Assembly (NCBI GenBank): GCA_029887765.1
Contig: JARXPF010000001.1
Location: 352,750 to 416,749 of the forward strand
DNA length: 64,000 bases
Reading direction: 5' to 3'
From: Thermoproteota archaeon
Lineage (GTDB): Archaea > Thermoproteota > Methanomethylicia > Methanomethylicales > Methanomethylicaceae
In this document: positions 9,108 through 47,366 of the stretch, piece by piece
Layout of the letters: each line of letters starts with the position of its first letter
How positions within the stretch are numbered: position 1 is the stretch's first letter
Position numbers and translations under genes: made by a program
The notes under the pieces: generated by a model
Database searches by the model: none
What the model was told of the DNA's origin: nothing
Seen by the model: only the letters and a program-made list of their open reading frames with translations

Positions 9108-10317
9108 TTAATCTCCATCTACCAGTTATCATTCTACTAATTGCAACTCGCATTCCTGGTTCAGCACAAACAGGACGTTTTAAAGTAAGATAAGCTTCAT
9201 CTCGATGAATAGAAGATACTGTACCAAGTGTTACTGCTGATCCTATAACAAGCATTAAGTTTTCCCTAACTTTTAATTGTTCTACTTTTTGAAGTTCTTT
9301 AGTCCCAACTGCTCTATCTAAGAGATGAAATTTTATAGTTATGTCATTTTGAATTGGAGGCAATGTTCCAGGCTTACCAGCGATATTCCCAACTAATCCA
9401 TCTGCTTTAGTTAATGCAGGATCTAAATAAGTTCCAACTCCTATTAATCCTCCAGGTCCAACTTCTTCTAAATAATGATCTCCTGCCATTAAGCTTGCAA
9501 CATATGTGTATATTGGTTCATAGTAAGTCTTGCCTCCTTGTTCTATCTTAAGTCCAGGGCTTATCTCTAATTCATCTCCTACTTTTAATCTTCCTTGAAT
9601 TAAAGTACCTCCAATTACTCCTCCTTTCAAATCTTTAGGCCTAATTCCTGGTTTATTAACATCAAATGATCTTGCAATATACATTCTTGATGGTTTTGAT
9701 GGATCTCTATATGGAGTTTTTATTCTTTCTTCAATTACTTGAATTAAATAGTCAATATTAGTACCAAAAATAGAAGATATAGGAACTATTGGAGCGTTTT
9801 CTGCAATAGTACCTTTAATAAAAGAAAGAATTTGATTATAATTTTCAATTGCTTTTTTCTTATCTACAGCATCTATCTTACTTTGAACAATTACTATATT
9901 TTTTATTCCTATTATCTCTAAAGCTACAAGATGTTCCCTAGTTTGTGGTTGAGGACATTCTTCATTTGCTGCAATTACTAATATAGCACCATCCATTAAA
10001 GCTGCCCCAGAAAGCATTGTAGCCATTAAACTTTCATGGCCAGGAGCATCTACAAAAGAAACTTTTCTAAGAAAAATTGTTGGTATATTATGTACTGGGC
10101 ATATTTCCTTAGTAGTAAAGCATTCAGGAGGAGGACATTCTGGACATTTTCTAAATGTTGTATCTGCATATCCCAATTTTATAGTAATACCTCTTTTGAG
10201 CTCTTCACTATGACGAGCTGCCCATATACCACTTAAAGCTGCTACAAGTGTAGTTTTTCCATGATCTACATGTCCAGTTAATCCTATATTACATTCTGGC
10301 TGCTTAAAATCAGCCAT
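9085..10317 (-). CDS. eif2g: Translation initiation factor aIF2 gamma
   Basis: GHVDHGKT, RGITIKLGYAD, DAPGHE, QSKID, WRLIGYG. Confidence 0.97.
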   Translation of the reverse strand: MADFKQPECNIGLTGHVDHGKTTLVAALSGIWAARHSEELKRGITIKLGYADTTFRKCPECPPPECFTTKEICPVHNIPTIFLRKVSFVDAPGHESLMATMLSGAALMDGAILVIAANEECPQPQTREHLVALEIIGIKNIVIVQSKIDAVDKKKAIENYNQILSFIKGTIAENAPIVPISSIFGTNIDYLIQVIEERIKTPYRDPSKPSRMYIARSFDVNKPGIRPKDLKGGVIGGTLIQGRLKVGDELEISPGLKIEQGGKTYYEPIYTYVASLMAGDHYLEEVGPGGLIGVGTYLDPALTKADGLVGNIAGKPGTLPPIQNDITIKFHLLDRAVGTKELQKVEQLKVRENLMLVIGSAVTLGTVSSIHRDEAYLTLKRPVCAEPGMRVAISRMITGRWRLIGYGYIQ

Positions 10318-10666
10318 TTTTTTCCTCCTTTACAACTAAATTTATTTGGACGATATCTTCTGTTATCATATTTCCCCTAATCAATTTCTTTCTCCTTTCT
10401 CCTTCTTTTTTAGGATGATAGCCAGGAGGGCCAGATAATAGAGCATATTTTTTTACCCCACCCTGTATATCAGGTCTCATTGGTATTCCACTTTTATCAC
10501 TCCCACCTGTTATTACTAATTTCTTACCAGGATAGCCAAAAGCTTCTCCATCCACATAGTCTCCTATCTTCAGTCCTATGAATATTCGCGCCATTTCATC
10601 TTTTACAGTAATGGTCTTAGATTTACCATCTTCTGGATTAGATACTACTAGTTTAAACTCTACCAA
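10310..10666 (-). CDS. rps6e: 30S ribosomal protein S6e
   Basis: ITGGSDKSGIPM, GERRKKLIRGN. Confidence 0.96.
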   Translation of the reverse strand: MVEFKLVVSNPEDGKSKTITVKDEMARIFIGLKIGDYVDGEAFGYPGKKLVITGGSDKSGIPMRPDIQGGVKKYALLSGPPGYHPKKEGERRKKLIRGNMITEDIVQINLVVKEEKNG

Positions 10667-10730
10667 CTACACCACCAGTTTTTTCTTTAATCAAAGTTCG
10701 AGGTTGACAATGTTTATAACTCTTTCGCAT

Positions 10731-12537
10731 TTATGATTCTACAGATTCTAATTCTTTATCTAAACGTAATTTTAAGATTTTATCTAATAATTCTAATTCT
10801 TCTTGTGAAAGTTTATCTTTAAATTTTTCTTTAAGTAAGAATATATCATTATCACTTACTGCTACATAAAGTAGTTCTCCTTCTTTTACTTGCCTACCTA
10901 CTATGAAATCTCCTTTAACTGATATTGCTACTTTATCACCTTTTTTTGCCAAATCTATGTTATTTCCACGATCTTGTATTTGCATAATTTCTCCTATTAT
11001 CTCACCATTTTCTTTCATTAAGGGATAGCCTGGCTTTATGCATCCTAATAAAACTTCAATACCAAAAATAGGTGGAGAGCTTCTTCTAAAGACATATCCA
11101 GGAAGAACTTTTATAACTCCAGGAAGAATAACTTGACTAAATTCTTTAGAACGCATTTCTTCAATAATTTTTGTATGCCAAGCTTTAAAATCATCAACTA
11201 TATGATATATTACATTACTAATAAAAATGGGAATTCCTCTATTTTTAGCTTCTATACTTGCTTCTTGAGTAATATTTATATTAAAACCTAGTATTGCTCC
11301 AAGTTCTGGTTTTTTTCTTTTAACAATAGTTGCTTCTATAATATCTTTTTTACTAATTGGACCAATATCTGATATTCTCACTGGAATGCCTGAAGATTTT
11401 AAAAATTTTACTAATGCTTCAAGCGATCCAAGTGTATCTGCTTTTACTATAACACCATTAATATCAGAGGAAAATCTCAATTCTGTCATTTCTTCTTTTA
11501 TTCTATTCTTTGCAAGTTCAATAGATGCTTCATCATTTGCTACTATTACTGGTGCCCCACCTACAGCATCTTCTAATCCTGGTGCTACAATTTTAACTCC
11601 TGCAGCAGCCACAACTTTTTCAGTAGCAATAAACTTATCCTCAGGATCTCTTATTTCATTTAAAGGTTTTGGAAGTAAAATTGCTCTTATTTTTGTTACA
11701 ATTGGACCTTTTAACCCTCCAACAACAATTGTGTCTCCTTTCTTTACTATTCCATTAAAAATAATTACATCAATAGTTTTTCCCAATCCTGGATCTTCCT
11801 TAGTTTCAAGTACAACTCCCTCTCCAGGACCTTCTGTAGTTAATAAACGATCTGTTAAATATTGTTGTGTAAGTCCACAAATTAAAGCAAGAAGCTCTGG
11901 AATACCTTCACCAGTAAGAGCACTTGTAGGAACTATGGCAACAGTCCTTGTAAAGTCTTTTATTCTATCATATCTATCAGATGAAAAGCCAAATCTTGCA
12001 AGTTCACCAATTATCTTATTTATCATTTCATCAAGTCTATTTCTTACATAGGATTCTTGAAGTTTGTAAGATTCTATAAATGATTTATTTGGATATGGCT
12101 TCCATCCTGGAATTTTGTCTATCTTATTTGCTGCTACTACAAAAGGAGTTTTACGAGATCTTAATATTTCTATACATTCTTCAGTTTGACGTTCAACACC
12201 TTTTAGAATATCAATAACTAATATTGCAATATCAGATACTGCTCCACCTCTAAATCTTAAATTTGAAAATACTTCATGTCCAGGAGTATCAATAACTAAT
12301 ATCCCAGGTACTTTAAGTTTAGCTTCAAATCCCTTTATAACAGAGCTACAATATTTAATAATAACATCTGTAGGTAAGAAACTGGCACCTATATGTTGGG
12401 TTTGCCACTGCTTTTTAAGCAGTCATGGCCCCAACTTCACGTGCCATTACACTTGTTCCTCTTATTTTATCTAATAATAGAGTTTTTCCAACATCAACAT
12501 GACCTAAAACAGTAACTATTGGTTGTCTTATTGGCAT
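10731..12537 (-). CDS. infB: Translation initiation factor aIF5B/IF-2, intron-split: exon 1 12424-12537 (38 codons), exon 2 10731-12401; spliced product 594 aa
   Basis: Exon 1 reads [38 protein letters not shown]. Exon 2 reads [10 protein letters not shown]...DTPGHE...NKID with no stop and in frame with the 10731..12026 ORF. Confidence 0.93.
12402..12423 (-). other. 22-nt bulge-helix-bulge (tRNA-type) intron in infB mRNA
   Basis: Minus strand GTTGGG GCCA TG^A CTGCTT AAA AAGCAG TGGC AA^A CCCAAC: 6-bp outer helix, 4-bp central helix, two 3-nt bulges, 6-bp inner helix; contains in-frame TAA. Confidence 0.9.
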
Positions 12538-12568
12538 GTTCTCACCCTTTAAGATATAAAAAAACTTT

Positions 12569-13018
12569 CTAATAAACAAAAGCCTCATCAAGACGTGAAT
12601 AATTTAAGAGATCATTTTCTTTAAAAAATATAGAAAGTTCTTTTTTAGCATTTTCTAAAGAATCTGAAGCATGAATCACATTCATACTTTTTGAACATGA
12701 AAAATCTCCTCGAATAGTACCAGGAGGAGCTTCTTTTGAATCTGTTGGACCAATAATTTTACGCATAATAGAAATAGCACTTTCTCCTTCTATTGCCATA
12801 ACAACAACAGGAGCAGATCTTATAAATTTTATTAAATCATTATAAAATGGTTTATCTCTATGAACTTCATATAATTTTGAAGCTTCTTCTTCAGATAATT
12901 TTATCATTTTCATTCCTACAATTTTCAAACCTTTTCGTTCTATTCTAGAGATGATCTCTCCTATAAGACCACGAAGTACTGCATCAGGTTTTATCATAAC
13001 AAAAGTCCTTTCAATCAT
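12569..13018 (-). CDS. ndk: Nucleoside diphosphate kinase
   Basis: [24 protein letters not shown]. Confidence 0.97.
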
Positions 13019-13209
13019 TTAATTGTCACTCCAGAAGCCCACTTTAAATATTTAGGATTTCTTTTAAGATATAACATATTTTTTCTACATTTACTAGAAC
13101 AAAAACGTAATATTGTACCATCATTTTTTACATACATTATTCCAGTACCAGGTTCTATTTTCTTACTACAAAAAGAACATTTAAATATAGAGACCATGAT
13201 TATCACCAA
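13015..13209 (-). CDS. rpl24e: 50S ribosomal protein L24e
   Basis: CSFC..IEPGTG.MYV..DG...FCSSKC. Confidence 0.96.
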
Positions 13210-13217
13210 ATAAAAAA

Positions 13218-13436
13218 TTATCTTGGTGTTAATTTCTTAGCCTCGCGCTCTGTCTCTCTTAGCATTAATATATCTCCGACTCTCACTGGACCTTTTACAT
13301 TTCTAGTAAGAATTCTACCTTTATCCTTTCCTTCTAACACACGAACTCTTACTTGTATAACTTCTCCAGTAACTCCAGTACGACCTATTAATTGAATCAC
13401 TTCAGCAGGATAAGCCTCGCTAGACTCACTACTCAT
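13218..13436 (-). CDS. rps28e: 30S ribosomal protein S28e
   Basis: [24 protein letters not shown]. Confidence 0.97.
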
Positions 13437-13451
13437 TAATTATCCCCTGAA

Positions 13452-13919
13452 CTATTGTTCTTTCTTTTTCTTCTTTGGTTTCTCTTCTTTTGGTTTTTCT
13501 TCCTTTGGTTTTTCTTCTTTCGGTGCTTCTTCTTTTGGTGCTTCTCCTTTGAATCTAATTTCAGAAACCTTTGCAACAATTTCATCCATTAGTGGTTTTC
13601 CTTTTCCAGGGTCTATTATGGCAACTGCTGATGCTGCAACCTCTATACCAGCAGCTTCTCCAAGTTTACTTTTTGAATCTACATATACATATGGAATTTT
13701 CTTTTCATCTGAAAGTAAAGGTAAGTGGGCTACAATCTCTGGTGGATCTACATCTTGTGCAATTACTAAGAGTTTTGCTAAATTTCTTTCCACTGCTTTT
13801 GTTGATTCATTTGCACCCTTCTTTATTTTTCCACTTTCAGCAGCTAGTTTAACACATTCATATACTTTTTCCATCAATTCTGATGGCACTTCAAATGTTA
13901 CATATATTGGTTTAGACAT
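13452..13919 (-). CDS. rpl7ae: 50S ribosomal protein L7Ae with charged C-terminal extension
   Basis: [37 protein letters not shown]. Confidence 0.97.
13470..13548 (-). repeat. Imperfect 15-nt tandem repeat encoding (PKEE[A/K])n at the L7Ae C-terminus
   Basis: Protein ends [31 protein letters not shown]; repeated tttggtttttcttc-like units on + strand. Confidence 0.85.
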
Positions 13920-13987
13920 TATCCCTCATCCTCTTTCATCGTTCATTTTCTAGGAAAAAAGTAAAAGGGGTTTATGAGCTTTTTGGT

Positions 13988-15709
13988 TTAATCATGAGTG
14001 TAATAACCAATAAGTTTATTATTAATTTTATAGAGTCTTACAAATCCAAATCTATAAAATTGAAAACTATTTGGTAGAGACTCTTTTAAGACATTATCAT
14101 CTACTATGCCATTGATAATACTACCATCCTTCATTATTATTGATATTTCAACACCTACTCCATGAGGAAGCCATTGAATTATAGGAGAATTAAGTTTTTT
14201 AATATCTAAAATATCTTCACTAAAGTAATTGAATTCGGTTTGAGAAATTTTTTTAATATTAAATAAATTCATTAATCTTAAAATTGCTCCGTTATTTAAT
14301 TCTGATACGTCTTTGTTTTGAACCAATACTACACTAGAACCAGAGTTTATTTTATATTTAATAAATCCCCATTCTGGATGATCTGGATGTAGAGGAATTT
14401 TTGCTTCAAAATCCTTTGGAATTCCTTTAATTGTAATTGTAATAGGTTCTTGAAGAAATATAAAACGCTTAGTTAATGGATCCAAAATTTTTCTATTTAT
14501 TGCTTCAAGATTTTCCCAACTTATGGTAGCTTCAGAAGGTTTTATTCCTACTTCAATTATTATTTGTCTAATAGTATCTGGTAAAATACCACGTTTTCTC
14601 AAAGCTGCAATTGTACCAAGACGTGGATCACTCCAATCCATAAATTTTCCTTCTTCTATTCCTTGACGCATTTTTGATTTACTTAATATAGTGCCTTCTA
14701 TTTTAAGACGACCATAATGTATTACTTCAGGATACTCCCATCCAAAGTATTTATAGAGATACAATTGTCTAATTGTATTTATTTCATGTTCCTTTCCACG
14801 TAATATATGAGTTATTCCCATGAGATGATCATCTATAGCACATGCAAAATTATAAAGAGGCCATACACGATATTTACTTCCTTGTAGAGGATGAGGTTTT
14901 GGATCTATACGCATAGCAGGCCAATCTCTAACAGCTGGATTTGGATGGTTCAAGTCTGTTTTAATTCTCATAACAGCTTCTCCTTTTTTAAATTCACCAT
15001 TTAACATCTTACTCCATCTTTTCAGATGCTCTTCCACTGGAAGTTCTCTACATGGGCATGGTATACTTGAAGCGATTAATTTACGAAATGATTCTGGATT
15101 ACAAGTACATACATATGCTCCATTAATTTCAATTATTTTTTCAGCATAATCATAATAAATTTCCATTCTTTGAGATTGAATATACTCTTCATGCCAATTA
15201 ATACCAAGCCATTTAAGATCTTCACGTATGGCATCATATGCTTCAATCATAGGAGGTTTTACTGATGGAGAAGTATCTTCAAATCTAAGAATAAAAATAC
15301 CATTATACATTTTTGCATATTCATCATTAAGTATAGCTGCACGTGAATTACCAAGATGAATGGCAAAATCAGGATTGGGTGCAAATCTTACTTTAATCCT
15401 AGTATACTTTTGAGCATTTGGTAAAGGTGGAAGAATGTGTTTTTGTTCTTTTGGTTTCTCTTTTGAAATAAATATACCAAGTTTTTTAGCTAAATCTTGT
15501 TGCTCATTAATATTCATGGAATTTATTTCTAATACTACAATATTTGATAATTTGAATATTTCTTGTGCCATTTGCTTTAAATCAGGTCTTTCAGATAATA
15601 CTTTTCCAACAACAGCTTTAACTTCAGCCTTACCTCCATATTTTATAGCATTAATGAGAGCATGTTTTTTAATTAATGTAATAATTTCTTCATGAGACAT
15701 TTTAATCAC
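13988..15709 (-). CDS. gltX: Glutamate--tRNA ligase
   Basis: RFAPNP..HLGN, LRFEDT, LRGKEH, LSKS; archaeal N-terminal extension. Confidence 0.97.
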   Translation of the reverse strand: MIKMSHEEIITLIKKHALINAIKYGGKAEVKAVVGKVLSERPDLKQMAQEIFKLSNIVVLEINSMNINEQQDLAKKLGIFISKEKPKEQKHILPPLPNAQKYTRIKVRFAPNPDFAIHLGNSRAAILNDEYAKMYNGIFILRFEDTSPSVKPPMIEAYDAIREDLKWLGINWHEEYIQSQRMEIYYDYAEKIIEINGAYVCTCNPESFRKLIASSIPCPCRELPVEEHLKRWSKMLNGEFKKGEAVMRIKTDLNHPNPAVRDWPAMRIDPKPHPLQGSKYRVWPLYNFACAIDDHLMGITHILRGKEHEINTIRQLYLYKYFGWEYPEVIHYGRLKIEGTILSKSKMRQGIEEGKFMDWSDPRLGTIAALRKRGILPDTIRQIIIEVGIKPSEATISWENLEAINRKILDPLTKRFIFLQEPITITIKGIPKDFEAKIPLHPDHPEWGFIKYKINSGSSVVLVQNKDVSELNNGAILRLMNLFNIKKISQTEFNYFSEDILDIKKLNSPIIQWLPHGVGVEISIIMKDGSIINGIVDDNVLKESLPNSFQFYRFGFVRLYKINNKLIGYYTHD

Positions 15710-24571: not shown

Positions 24572-24671
24572 TGGCGCCGAGGGGGGGATTTGAACCCCCG
24601 AGCCCATTATGGGCACAGGCTCTCCAGGCTTGAGCAAACTTCTGCTCCCTTCCAGACTAGGAGACCTCGGC
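24572..24671 (-). tRNA. tRNA-Ser(GGA) with 12-nt non-canonical intron at position 29/30 (24630-24641); CCA encoded
   Basis: GCCGAGG/CCTCGGC acceptor, CAG[AAGTTTGCTCAA]GC-CTGGAGA-GCCTG anticodon arm, long variable arm, GGGGG-TTCAAAT-CCCCC T arm. Confidence 0.92.
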
Positions 24672-45260: not shown

Positions 45261-46724
45261 TCAGCCCTTGGTCACCCCTATTGGTACCATTCTAGCTACT
45301 AAAGTAGCAATTCCAAGTTTATGAGAGACTTCAGCCACTCTATCCACATCTTTATAAGCACCTGGAGCTTCTTCTGCTATAACACGAATATTTGCCGCTC
45401 TTATCATTATCCCTCTATTTTCAAGTTCTCTTTTTACTTCACTACCCCAATATTTCTTTATAGCAGCTTCTCTACTAAGATATCTTCCAGCTCCATGAGC
45501 AGTAGATCCCCAACTAAGTTCCATAGCTGCAGGAGCACCAAGTAATAAGTAAGATGCAGTACCCATACTGCCTGGAATTATAACTGGTTGACCTATTTCT
45601 CTATATTCTTGTGGAATCTCAGGTCGACCAGCAGGAAAAGCTCTAGTTGCACCTTTTCTATGTACATATACTATTCGTTTTTTCCCTTCATAGATATGTT
45701 CCTCTCTCTTTGCTAAATTATGTGCAACATCATAAACTAAATGCATTCCCAATTTTTCAGGATCAGTTTTGAAAACTTTTTGAAAAGCTTCTCTAGTCCA
45801 ATGTGTAATACATTGTCTATTTGCCCAAGCATAATTACAAGCTGCTGACATTGCAGCAAAATAATCTTGAGCTTCAGGACTATTTGCAGGAGCACATGCT
45901 AATTCTCTATCTGGAATTTTTATTTTATATTTTGAAACTGCATGTTCCATTACATGAAGATAATCACTACAAACTTGATGTCCAAGTCCTCTACTACCTG
46001 AATGTATCATAACTACAACTTGTCCTTCATGTTCAATTCCAAAAATTTTAGCTACTCTTTGATCATAAATCTTATCTACTACTTGAACTTCAAGAAAATG
46101 ATTTCCACTCCCAAGAGTACCAAGTTGACTTGCTCCTCTAGATTTTGCACTGGAAGATACTTTACTATGATCCGCAGTTTTCATACAACCTTCTTCTTCA
46201 CATCTTTTAGCATCTTCATCCCAACCATATCCTTGTTCTATTGCCCATTGTACACCCATATCCAATACTCTATTTTGTTGAGTGGTGTCTAAGCGTATCC
46301 CGCCCTTACTACCAAGACCTGAAGGAACTAATTCAAATAGAGTATCAATTAATTTCGATAAATGAGGACGAACATCTTTTATATCAAGATTTGTTAAAAC
46401 TAATCTAACTCCACAATTAATATCATATCCAACTCCACCAGGAGATATTACTCCTTCTTCTGCATCAAATGCCGCAACACCACCTATTGGAAAGCCATAA
46501 CCTTGATGACCATCTGGCATGGTAATAGAATACTTTAAAATTCCAGGTAATTGAGCTACATTAGCACATTGTTGAAGTGTTAAATCTTCCTTCATTTTCT
46601 CAAGTAAGTATTCATCAGCATATATTCTACAAGGAACTTTCATATTTGGATTATAATTCTTGGGGATTTCCCATATATATTCGCTTATTTTTTTAAGAGG
46701 GATATTTGTCATTTCAATCACCAA
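45261..46724 (-). CDS. rtcB: tRNA-splicing ligase RtcB
   Basis: [55 protein letters not shown]. Confidence 0.98.
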
Positions 46725-46794
46725 TAAACCATAAATATTTTCTTATTTCTAATATGGTAAAGATATAATTAAACTTTTTATTGGAGGGAAAAAA

Positions 46795-47214
46795 ATGGTT
46801 TATTCTTACCTAGACCATACCTCAGATGTCTATGTTCATATAGTTTCGAATACACTTGAAGAATTATTTGAAGAAGCAGCAATAGCTACTTTTGAAGTTA
46901 TGTTAAATACATCAAATGTAGAAGTCAAAGAAGTCATAGATGTAGAAATTGATGGAGATGATTTAGAACAATTACTTTATAAATGGATAGATAATCTCCT
47001 ATTAGTCTTTGATTCTAGAAGTTTTGCTTTAAGATATGCTAAAGTTGAAGAAATTAAAAATAATGGTAGATATTATTTAAAAGGAAAGCTTTATGGAGAA
47101 GAATATGATCCAAATAAACATGAACATAGAGTAGGAGTAAAAGCAATGACTTATTCTCTTATGAAAATTTTTAAGAATGATAAATGGGAGGCATATTTTG
47201 TACTTGATATTTGA
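46795..47214 (+). CDS. Archease
   Basis: LDHTSD, EELFEEAA, GEEYD, VKAMTY, C-terminal VLDI; divergent from rtcB. Confidence 0.95.
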   Translation: MVYSYLDHTSDVYVHIVSNTLEELFEEAAIATFEVMLNTSNVEVKEVIDVEIDGDDLEQLLYKWIDNLLLVFDSRSFALRYAKVEEIKNNGRYYLKGKLYGEEYDPNKHEHRVGVKAMTYSLMKIFKNDKWEAYFVLDI

Positions 47215-47249
47215 AAAATTTAATGCTTAGTAATTTATACTATTATTTA

Positions 47250-47354
47250 GCCGGGGTGGCTGAGTGGTTAAGGCGCCGGCCTCGAGATCTCATAAATGGG
47301 ACAGGTGAGCCGGTCCCCCTTTGGGGGTCAAGGGTTCGAATCCCTTCCCCGGCG
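47250..47354 (+). tRNA. tRNA-Ser(CGA) with 21-nt canonical 37/38 intron (47287-47307)
   Basis: GCCGGGG/CCCCGGC acceptor; CCGGC-CTCGAG[ATCTCATAAATGGGACAGGTG]A-GCCGG; long variable arm; CCA not encoded. Confidence 0.93.
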
Positions 47355-47366
47355 CTAAATACTACT

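Follow-up and report, generated by a model that had tools for sequence, protein, structure and literature searches.

The window analysed here, a stretch of 64,000 nucleotides, corresponds to C1:352750-416749 of a metagenome-assembled draft genome (1.17 Mb, seven contigs, 28% G + C) whose nearest public records are MAGs of Methanomethylicia (Verstraetearchaeota). Its minus strand carries infB, the gene for the translation factor aIF5B, in two parts on either side of a short insert; an RtcB RNA ligase, an archease and an intron-bearing tRNA are encoded elsewhere in the window (Table 1). The start of the first part, MPIRQPIV, agrees with that of orthologues.

Table 1. Coordinates of the infB features and of the splicing-related genes in the window (carets mark predicted cut sites).
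Feature	Position in window	Strand	Remarks
infB (aIF5B) exon 1	12424..12537	-	38 codons, ATG 12537 to AUG 12426-12424; encodes P-loop GHVDVGKT
infB exon 2	10731..12401	-	ACC CAA CAU ... stop; 556 codons plus stop; begins at the switch-I Thr
Whole hBHBh' motif	12395..12435	-	Direct reading and fold, strict scan, relatives, covariation
Outer helix, 6 bp	12430-12435 pairs with 12395-12400	-	
Central 4-bp helix	12426-12429 pairs with 12404-12407	-	GCCA/UGGC between UGA and AAA
Bulge 1	12423-12425	-	UG^A
Bulge 2	12401-12403	-	AA^A
Inner hairpin	12408-12422	-	
Predicted 22-nt BHB intron, ACUGCUUAAAAAGCAGUGGCAA	12402..12423	-	Boundaries are those of the insert relative to intron-less orthologues
RtcB RNA ligase, presumed exon joiner	45261..46724	-	Only copy in the genome; PF01139, 598.6 bits
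Archease (RtcB cofactor family)	46795..47214	+	Divergent from rtcB; PF01951, 141.7 bits
tRNA-Ser(CGA)	47250..47355	+	Intron at 37/38; in-genome reference BHB: GGC CUCG AGA ... UGAG CCG GUC

On the minus strand, the sequence around the insert reads GUUGGG GCCA UGA CUGCUU AAA AAGCAG UGGC AAA CCCAAC, which gives a flank helix, a 4-bp helix and a 3-nt bulge on each strand. The first-pass annotation of this DNA had described the layout as a bulge-helix-bulge (BHB) substrate of the archaeal tRNA splicing endonuclease, and its helices and bulges proved exact, base for base. RNAfold returned the BHB hairpin as both the MFE and the centroid structure (-25.3 kcal/mol over 61 nt, z = -3.8), and its folding energy was not matched in 200 shuffles. 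In the MFE fold, the first bulge is shifted by 1 nt, at no cost because the A pairs with the same U in either register. Cuts after the second nucleotide of both bulges would take out the 22 nt and join GCC AUG to ACC CAA, and the predicted spliced-junction read is GGGGCCATG^ACCCAACAT, with species-specific flanks. The 1-nt ambiguity of the cut in this genome is settled by relatives with G or U as the first intron base: where bulge 1 is UGG or UGU, ACC (Thr) is obtained only if the cut falls after the second bulge nucleotide, and the alternative register is thereby excluded.

The spliced and unspliced frames were recomputed. Without the insert, the frame that opens at ATG 12537 and closes with the stop at 10731 is an ORF of 1785 nt and 594 aa, whereas the unspliced frame reads ACU GCU UAA, with the stop as the third codon of the insert, after 40 residues. 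The first-pass annotation was thus right about the 22 nt excised, about the AMTQHIG junction and the early UAA, and about the product length of 594 aa. The spliced protein scored 804 bits against NCBIfam NF003078 (archaeal IF-2/aIF5B) and aligned gap-free over the junction to PDB entries 5fg3, 7yyp and 1g7r, with AMTQHIGAS here corresponding to GITQHIGAS in 5fg3 and 7yyp. An intact infB paralogue was absent both from this 97%-complete genome (estimate, 96.9%), where the other tblastn matches were distant GTPases (E ~1e-7), and from closed relatives, since single-contig genomes contained the interrupted copy only.

BHB geometry alone is common by chance in an AT-rich genome. A loose h-B-H-B-h' scan that allowed G-U pairs gave 6302 matches in the genome and 5139 in the shuffled genome, and was no better than chance. 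A strict filter, requiring at least 16 bp with at least eight G-C pairs and excluding G-U, left the infB motif as the sole match in 1.17 Mb. It also ranked first among the ORF-restoring BHB candidates of the genome, and for spliced protein genes other than infB that scan gave only AT-rich candidates of low quality. Because the geometry is common by chance, the significance of the motif rests on the identity of the BHB cut sites with independently defined insert boundaries and on covariation.

Other classes of insert were considered and rejected. A group I or II self-splicing intron, or another curated RNA family, is disfavoured by the absence of any Rfam match for positions 10000-14000 at E <= 1 and by the length of 22 nt, which is far too short. 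An intein is incompatible with an insert that shifts the frame and carries a UAA. Origin by transposition from a tRNA intron was likewise dismissed, as a search of the genome allowing up to four mismatches gave no other sequence related to the 22-mer.

The insert is not peculiar to this genome, and the same codon boundary is widely occupied in the class and in several other families of Thermoproteota. In total, 68 distinct sequences from genomes and metagenomes carried an insert of 17-33 nt there. At the level of the order, 26 of the 29 infB loci with a readable junction had an insert of 22, 25, 27 or 33 nt, and the other three were intron-less (GCCATG^ACCCAR, GCAATG^ACCCAA or similar); the sequence predicted to result from ligation is exactly that of the intron-less orthologues. 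In other families of the class (f7-f9), inserts of 29-33 nt with unrelated inner-helix sequences occupied the same boundary, and in families f3-f6 there was no insert and the exons (CCTGGAACTATG^ACTCAA) were unable to form the helices. Each of the 34 genes tested had an uninterrupted ORF of about 580 aa once the insert was removed at the BHB-guided cut sites, and none had any other disabling change. The alignment of infB from related MAGs that the first-pass annotation had proposed thus found the same site occupied and, as described below, the helices covarying.

A scan of public metagenome contigs with the insert pattern gave 101 matches, of which 44 were true infB loci (38 distinct). No contig in that collection, which may hold no transcript assemblies, contained the spliced junction in a BHB-competent exon context. 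This context, GTTGGGGCCATG^ACCCAR, was therefore found in 44 true infB loci with an insert and in no metagenome contig without one. Judged from these sequences, exon codons seem to drift quickly after intron loss.

The insert lengths cover all three classes modulo 3. All inserts whose length is a multiple of three (27, 30 and 33 nt, and 18 nt in family f22) contain an in-frame stop (loci L016-L021, L025, L028-L038, L043 and L074-L083). These stops arise independently, either as UGG UAA from the H' strand and bulge or as UAG or UGA in the loop or stem, a hint that selection acts against reading through unspliced mRNA into switch I. One locus of family f9 (L087, genome G054) has CGGC in place of UGGC as the intron strand of the central helix, giving an A.C mismatch; such a relaxed BHB would require an EndA of broad specificity.

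The top matches in the phylum had given the impression that the intron is confined to the class. Split infB genes score low in such a search, so the low-scoring genomes among the 401 of the phylum search were examined, and the impression proved wrong. Five further families (f15, f22, f32, f40 and f43) had inserts of 17-32 nt at the same boundary. In these families, the exon encodes G-G-I or G-E-M rather than G-A-M, and the change is matched on the intron strand of the central helix. Thus, G-A-M goes with the exon strand GCCA and the intron strand UGGC or UGGU, G-E-M with GAAA and UUUC or with GAGA and UCUC, and G-G-I with GGGA and UCCU or UCCC.

Two of these families, f22 and f32 (L220, L223 and L226-L231), also had a second BHB-type insert of 17-30 nt in the P-loop codons of infB (GH^...^VDHGKT), and some genes had both introns. 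Its BHB motif reads UCUA GGCC AC^A ... GGCU AA^G UGGA, the insert has the length of the predicted excision, and at least one compensatory change was found (GGCC/GGCU versus GGUC/GACU). A further split in infB, near residue 120-130 in genome G392 (L232, G392:C2:13080-13888), was a run of N with duplicated flanks and was discarded as a scaffolding artefact.

Covariation was evaluated on a gapless alignment (A1) of 60 distinct sequences trimmed to the fixed-register parts (36 columns). With the canonical structure, 95.4% of cells were paired versus 78.5% after shuffling, and the covariation score was 0.483 versus 0.165; neither value was reached in any of 500 shuffles, although the structure was derived from the same related sequences and the controls therefore overstate significance somewhat. 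When the partners were slid by 1-3 columns, 26-43% of cells were paired. The central helix was 99.6% paired across the 60 sequences and the 6-bp outer helix 96.4%; in the inner helix, the first 5 bp were 91% paired. Changes on both sides were found in 134 cells, distributed over seven pairs: all five inner-helix pairs and two central-helix pairs, the latter between exon and intron. In the central helix, this compensation takes the form of GCCA/UGGC, GAAA/UUUC and GGGA/UCCY. The effect size together with the exon-intron compensation would be hard to explain other than as a real structure.

The codons that form the helices are rare in this genome. GGG, GCC and ACC account for 4.3%, 4.2% and 2.9% of its Gly, Ala and Thr codons, respectively, a joint expectation of 5e-5. 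They are nearly invariant in intron-bearing genes, whereas intron-less genes of the same family have drifted to GGA, GGT, GCA, GTC and ACG.

In a maximum-likelihood tree of aIF5B, the intron-bearing genes fell into two well-supported clades, (f1 + f2) and (f7-f9). Intron-less genes from genus g8 and genome G003 were nested in f1 with support of 100/98 and 100/97, and the G003 gene was sister to one with a 27-nt intron. This nesting indicates at least two precise losses. As for the deep distribution, one old gain and repeated gains at a predisposed site would both be compatible with the tree.

The enzymes expected for such a reaction are encoded in this genome. Many of its tRNA genes are intron-bearing, and two PF01974 genes were identified, an alpha-like EndA at C1:87.9 kb and a beta-like paralogue at C3:55.9 kb. 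The catalytic subunit most closely resembles the alpha subunits of Aeropyrum, Sulfolobus and Pyrobaculum and keeps the crenarchaeal-loop lysine aligned with K44 of A. pernix. The second paralogue has Pro where the alignment with the M. jannaschii enzyme has the catalytic His, and is likely a structural beta subunit. As in-genome references for the motif, only the intron of tRNA-Ser(CGA) gave a clean canonical structure, with the same strand order as infB, and tRNA-Tyr and tRNA-Glu were ambiguous.

Taken together, the 22-nt insert is very probably a real mRNA intron, spliced by EndA and RtcB, in the single aIF5B gene. The testable features of BHB introns are all present, namely the bulges and 4-bp helix, the flanking helices, the cut rule, and genes for EndA and a ligase. 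The intron reading of the first-pass annotation is strongly supported, on comparative evidence, by the shared site, the intron-less orthologues, the compensatory changes, the single copy and the enzymes. Excision alone restores the frame in every insert-bearing gene (the lengths fall in all classes modulo 3, and in-frame inserts carry stops).

In the proposed mechanism, codons 35-38 of exon 1 (GUU GGG GCC AUG) and the start of exon 2 (ACC CAA C) would pair with each other and with the intron in the pre-mRNA, so that a short inner hairpin is enclosed by two 3-nt bulges, the 4-bp central helix and the outer helix. Cleavage by a heteromeric (alpha/beta) EndA would then fall between the second and third nucleotide of each bulge, and RtcB with archease would ligate the exons to give ...GCC AUG^ACC CAA..., encoding GAM^TQHIG. 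The excised 22-nt intron may be released as a circle. The 594-aa GTPase would come only from spliced mRNA, and translation of the unspliced mRNA would end at the UAA. The timing of splicing relative to translation also has to be considered: the intron is only 114 nt from the start codon, and splicing must compete with ribosomes unwinding the exon helices, which counts against the mechanism.

Four other explanations were weighed. The first is that EndA cuts the mRNA, for regulation or decay, with the exons left unjoined or the two halves serving as separate polypeptides. EndA is known to process non-intron substrates, for example rRNA precursors and the Haloferax 5'-UTR element (PMC7714728), but cleavage of this kind is very improbable for infB. 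Exon 1, with its 38 codons and P-loop, has kept its protein sequence despite many synonymous changes and is under strong purifying selection, and it is therefore translated. In exon 2, no start codon lies close to the junction. Moreover, the gene is the sole infB, the frame after removal was perfect in every gene tested, and RtcB and archease are both encoded.

The second explanation, highly implausible, is translational recoding, in which the ribosome bypasses or frameshifts over the insert and the RNA is left unspliced. Ribosomal hopping is known from phage T4 gene 60, and the stop soon after the take-off region and the stable hairpin in the gap superficially resemble bypass signals. However, there are no matching take-off and landing codons, as neither AUG nor GCC is repeated in frame at the landing site. 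Inserts of 17-33 nt in all modulo 3 classes fit no single frameshift rule, and those in frame always contain stops. The conserved features are exact BHB elements, including exon-intron pairs that a hop would not need.

Decay of infB into a pseudogene, with the insert as a disabling mutation, is scarcely credible: the DNA-encoded gene is indeed out of frame, with a stop after 40 codons, but no other disabling change was seen in the 34 genes, the position of the insert is conserved with compensatory changes across families, the factor is universal, essential and encoded in single copy, and nested lineages have lost the insert precisely. The addition of 22 nt by assembly or sequencing error, a concern already raised in the first-pass annotation, can be set aside as practically negligible: the genome is a draft assembled from a metagenome into seven contigs and the unrelated split in G392 did prove to be an N-gap, but inserts that differ in sequence and share a structure have been recovered at the same site by different studies in dozens of independent assemblies, some of them single-contig genomes.

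The closest analogue of the proposed EndA/RtcB-spliced infB intron is that of cbf5, which was reportedly studied by Watanabe in 2002 and Yoshinari in 2006 in Desulfurococcales and Sulfolobales of the Crenarchaeota. Like it, the infB intron is a short, ORF-less, BHB-type intron within protein-coding sequence, in hosts with a hetero-oligomeric (alpha/beta) EndA; its distribution is lineage-specific with secondary precise losses, and gene callers would be expected to mispredict the gene. In contrast, the host gene of the cbf5 intron encodes a pseudouridine synthase rather than aIF5B, and its BHB is unconventional, whereas that of infB is a strict hBHBh'. The infB intron is also far wider in distribution, in several Methanomethylicia families and other Thermoproteota. 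For cbf5, splicing has been demonstrated with cDNA and by cleavage in vitro; the infB case rests on comparative evidence. The two introns are analogues rather than homologues, because cbf5 of the present genome (C1:378105-379058) is uninterrupted, with a TIGR00425 match over positions 3-321 and no stops.

In 2009, cbf5 was described as the only archaeal mRNA with confirmed splicing, with a predicted cut between the second and third bulge nucleotides (Yokobori 2009, PMC2738675), a rule that also fits infB. A 2020 study names the cbf5 intron as the only one on record apart from a 5'-UTR element in Haloferax (PMC7714728), and a 2025 paper on the structure of EndA cites only the cbf5 work for mRNA. 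The first-pass annotation knew of no precedent in infB, and our full-text literature search likewise found no published description of such an intron in infB/aIF5B or in Methanomethylicia/Verstraetearchaeota.

Comparison with other systems places the infB intron close to archaeal tRNA introns (37/38 and non-canonical), which are EndA/RtcB substrates and share the flank helix, the 4-bp helix, the 3-nt bulges and the length range. The difference is that the infB exons are mRNA codons and not a tRNA body, so the helix halves must satisfy protein and RNA structure at once, using rare codons. The BHB intron in the 5'-UTR of HVO_1309 of Haloferax volcanii is also an EndA substrate within an mRNA, but it lies in an untranslated leader and interrupts no frame, whereas the infB frame is broken and needs exact ligation (PMC7714728). 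In eukaryotes, the IRE1/RtcB splicing of XBP1 and HAC1 is similar in that a short, frame-changing intron with stem-loop flanks is removed by a non-spliceosomal route. Ligation in metazoan XBP1-type splicing is performed by RtcB with archease. The endonuclease there is IRE1, the recognition motif is another one, and stress regulation is known, whereas for infB regulation is a hypothesis only.

It is conceivable, though we consider it unlikely, that the intron is a retained control point through which EndA and RtcB-archease gate aIF5B synthesis, or, in a related reading, that the site is a self-complementary landing spot. Persistence over deep divergences, the stop in every in-frame variant and the short distance from the start codon are compatible with selection on the unspliced state. 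The EndA/RtcB-archease machinery also matures tRNAs and rRNAs. If the intron were a control point, initiation capacity would track RNA-processing capacity, in an archaeal counterpart of the IRE1/RtcB-controlled splicing of XBP1/HAC1. As for the landing spot, a possibility is that the coding sequence of G-x-x-T-Q (..CUGGGG../..ACCCAG..) is intrinsically self-complementary and forms a recurrent BHB landing site, with a second one in the P-loop.

The tRNA-type splicing of archaeal coding sequence has so far been documented for one gene, cbf5. From the sequences compared here, many lineages of Methanomethylicia and other Thermoproteota appear to depend on the same mechanism to make aIF5B, a translation factor that is universal and essential. 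Gene callers can be expected to present such infB genes as broken or truncated, which would affect completeness estimates and marker-gene phylogenies. The gene is also an example of codons whose evolution is constrained twice, by the protein and by the RNA structure of the splice site, and offers a testable system for the question of whether mRNA splicing in archaea is regulated, in lineages that now have cultured members.

Three further features of the window were recorded. Beside rps10, the divergent rtcB and archease genes are followed directly by the intron-bearing tRNA-Ser(CGA) gene (45261-47355), so that the ligation genes adjoin a substrate of their own. At 24572-24671 on the minus strand, ARAGORN without intron mode predicted a tRNA with a 4-base anticodon, and with intron mode a tRNA-Glu(CUC) with a 3-nt intron; the gene is probably that of a tRNA whose non-canonical intron is misplaced in both modes. 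Finally, the L7Ae homologue at 13452-13919 (minus strand) has a lysine/glutamate-rich C-terminal tail, which seems unusual for an archaeal L7Ae.
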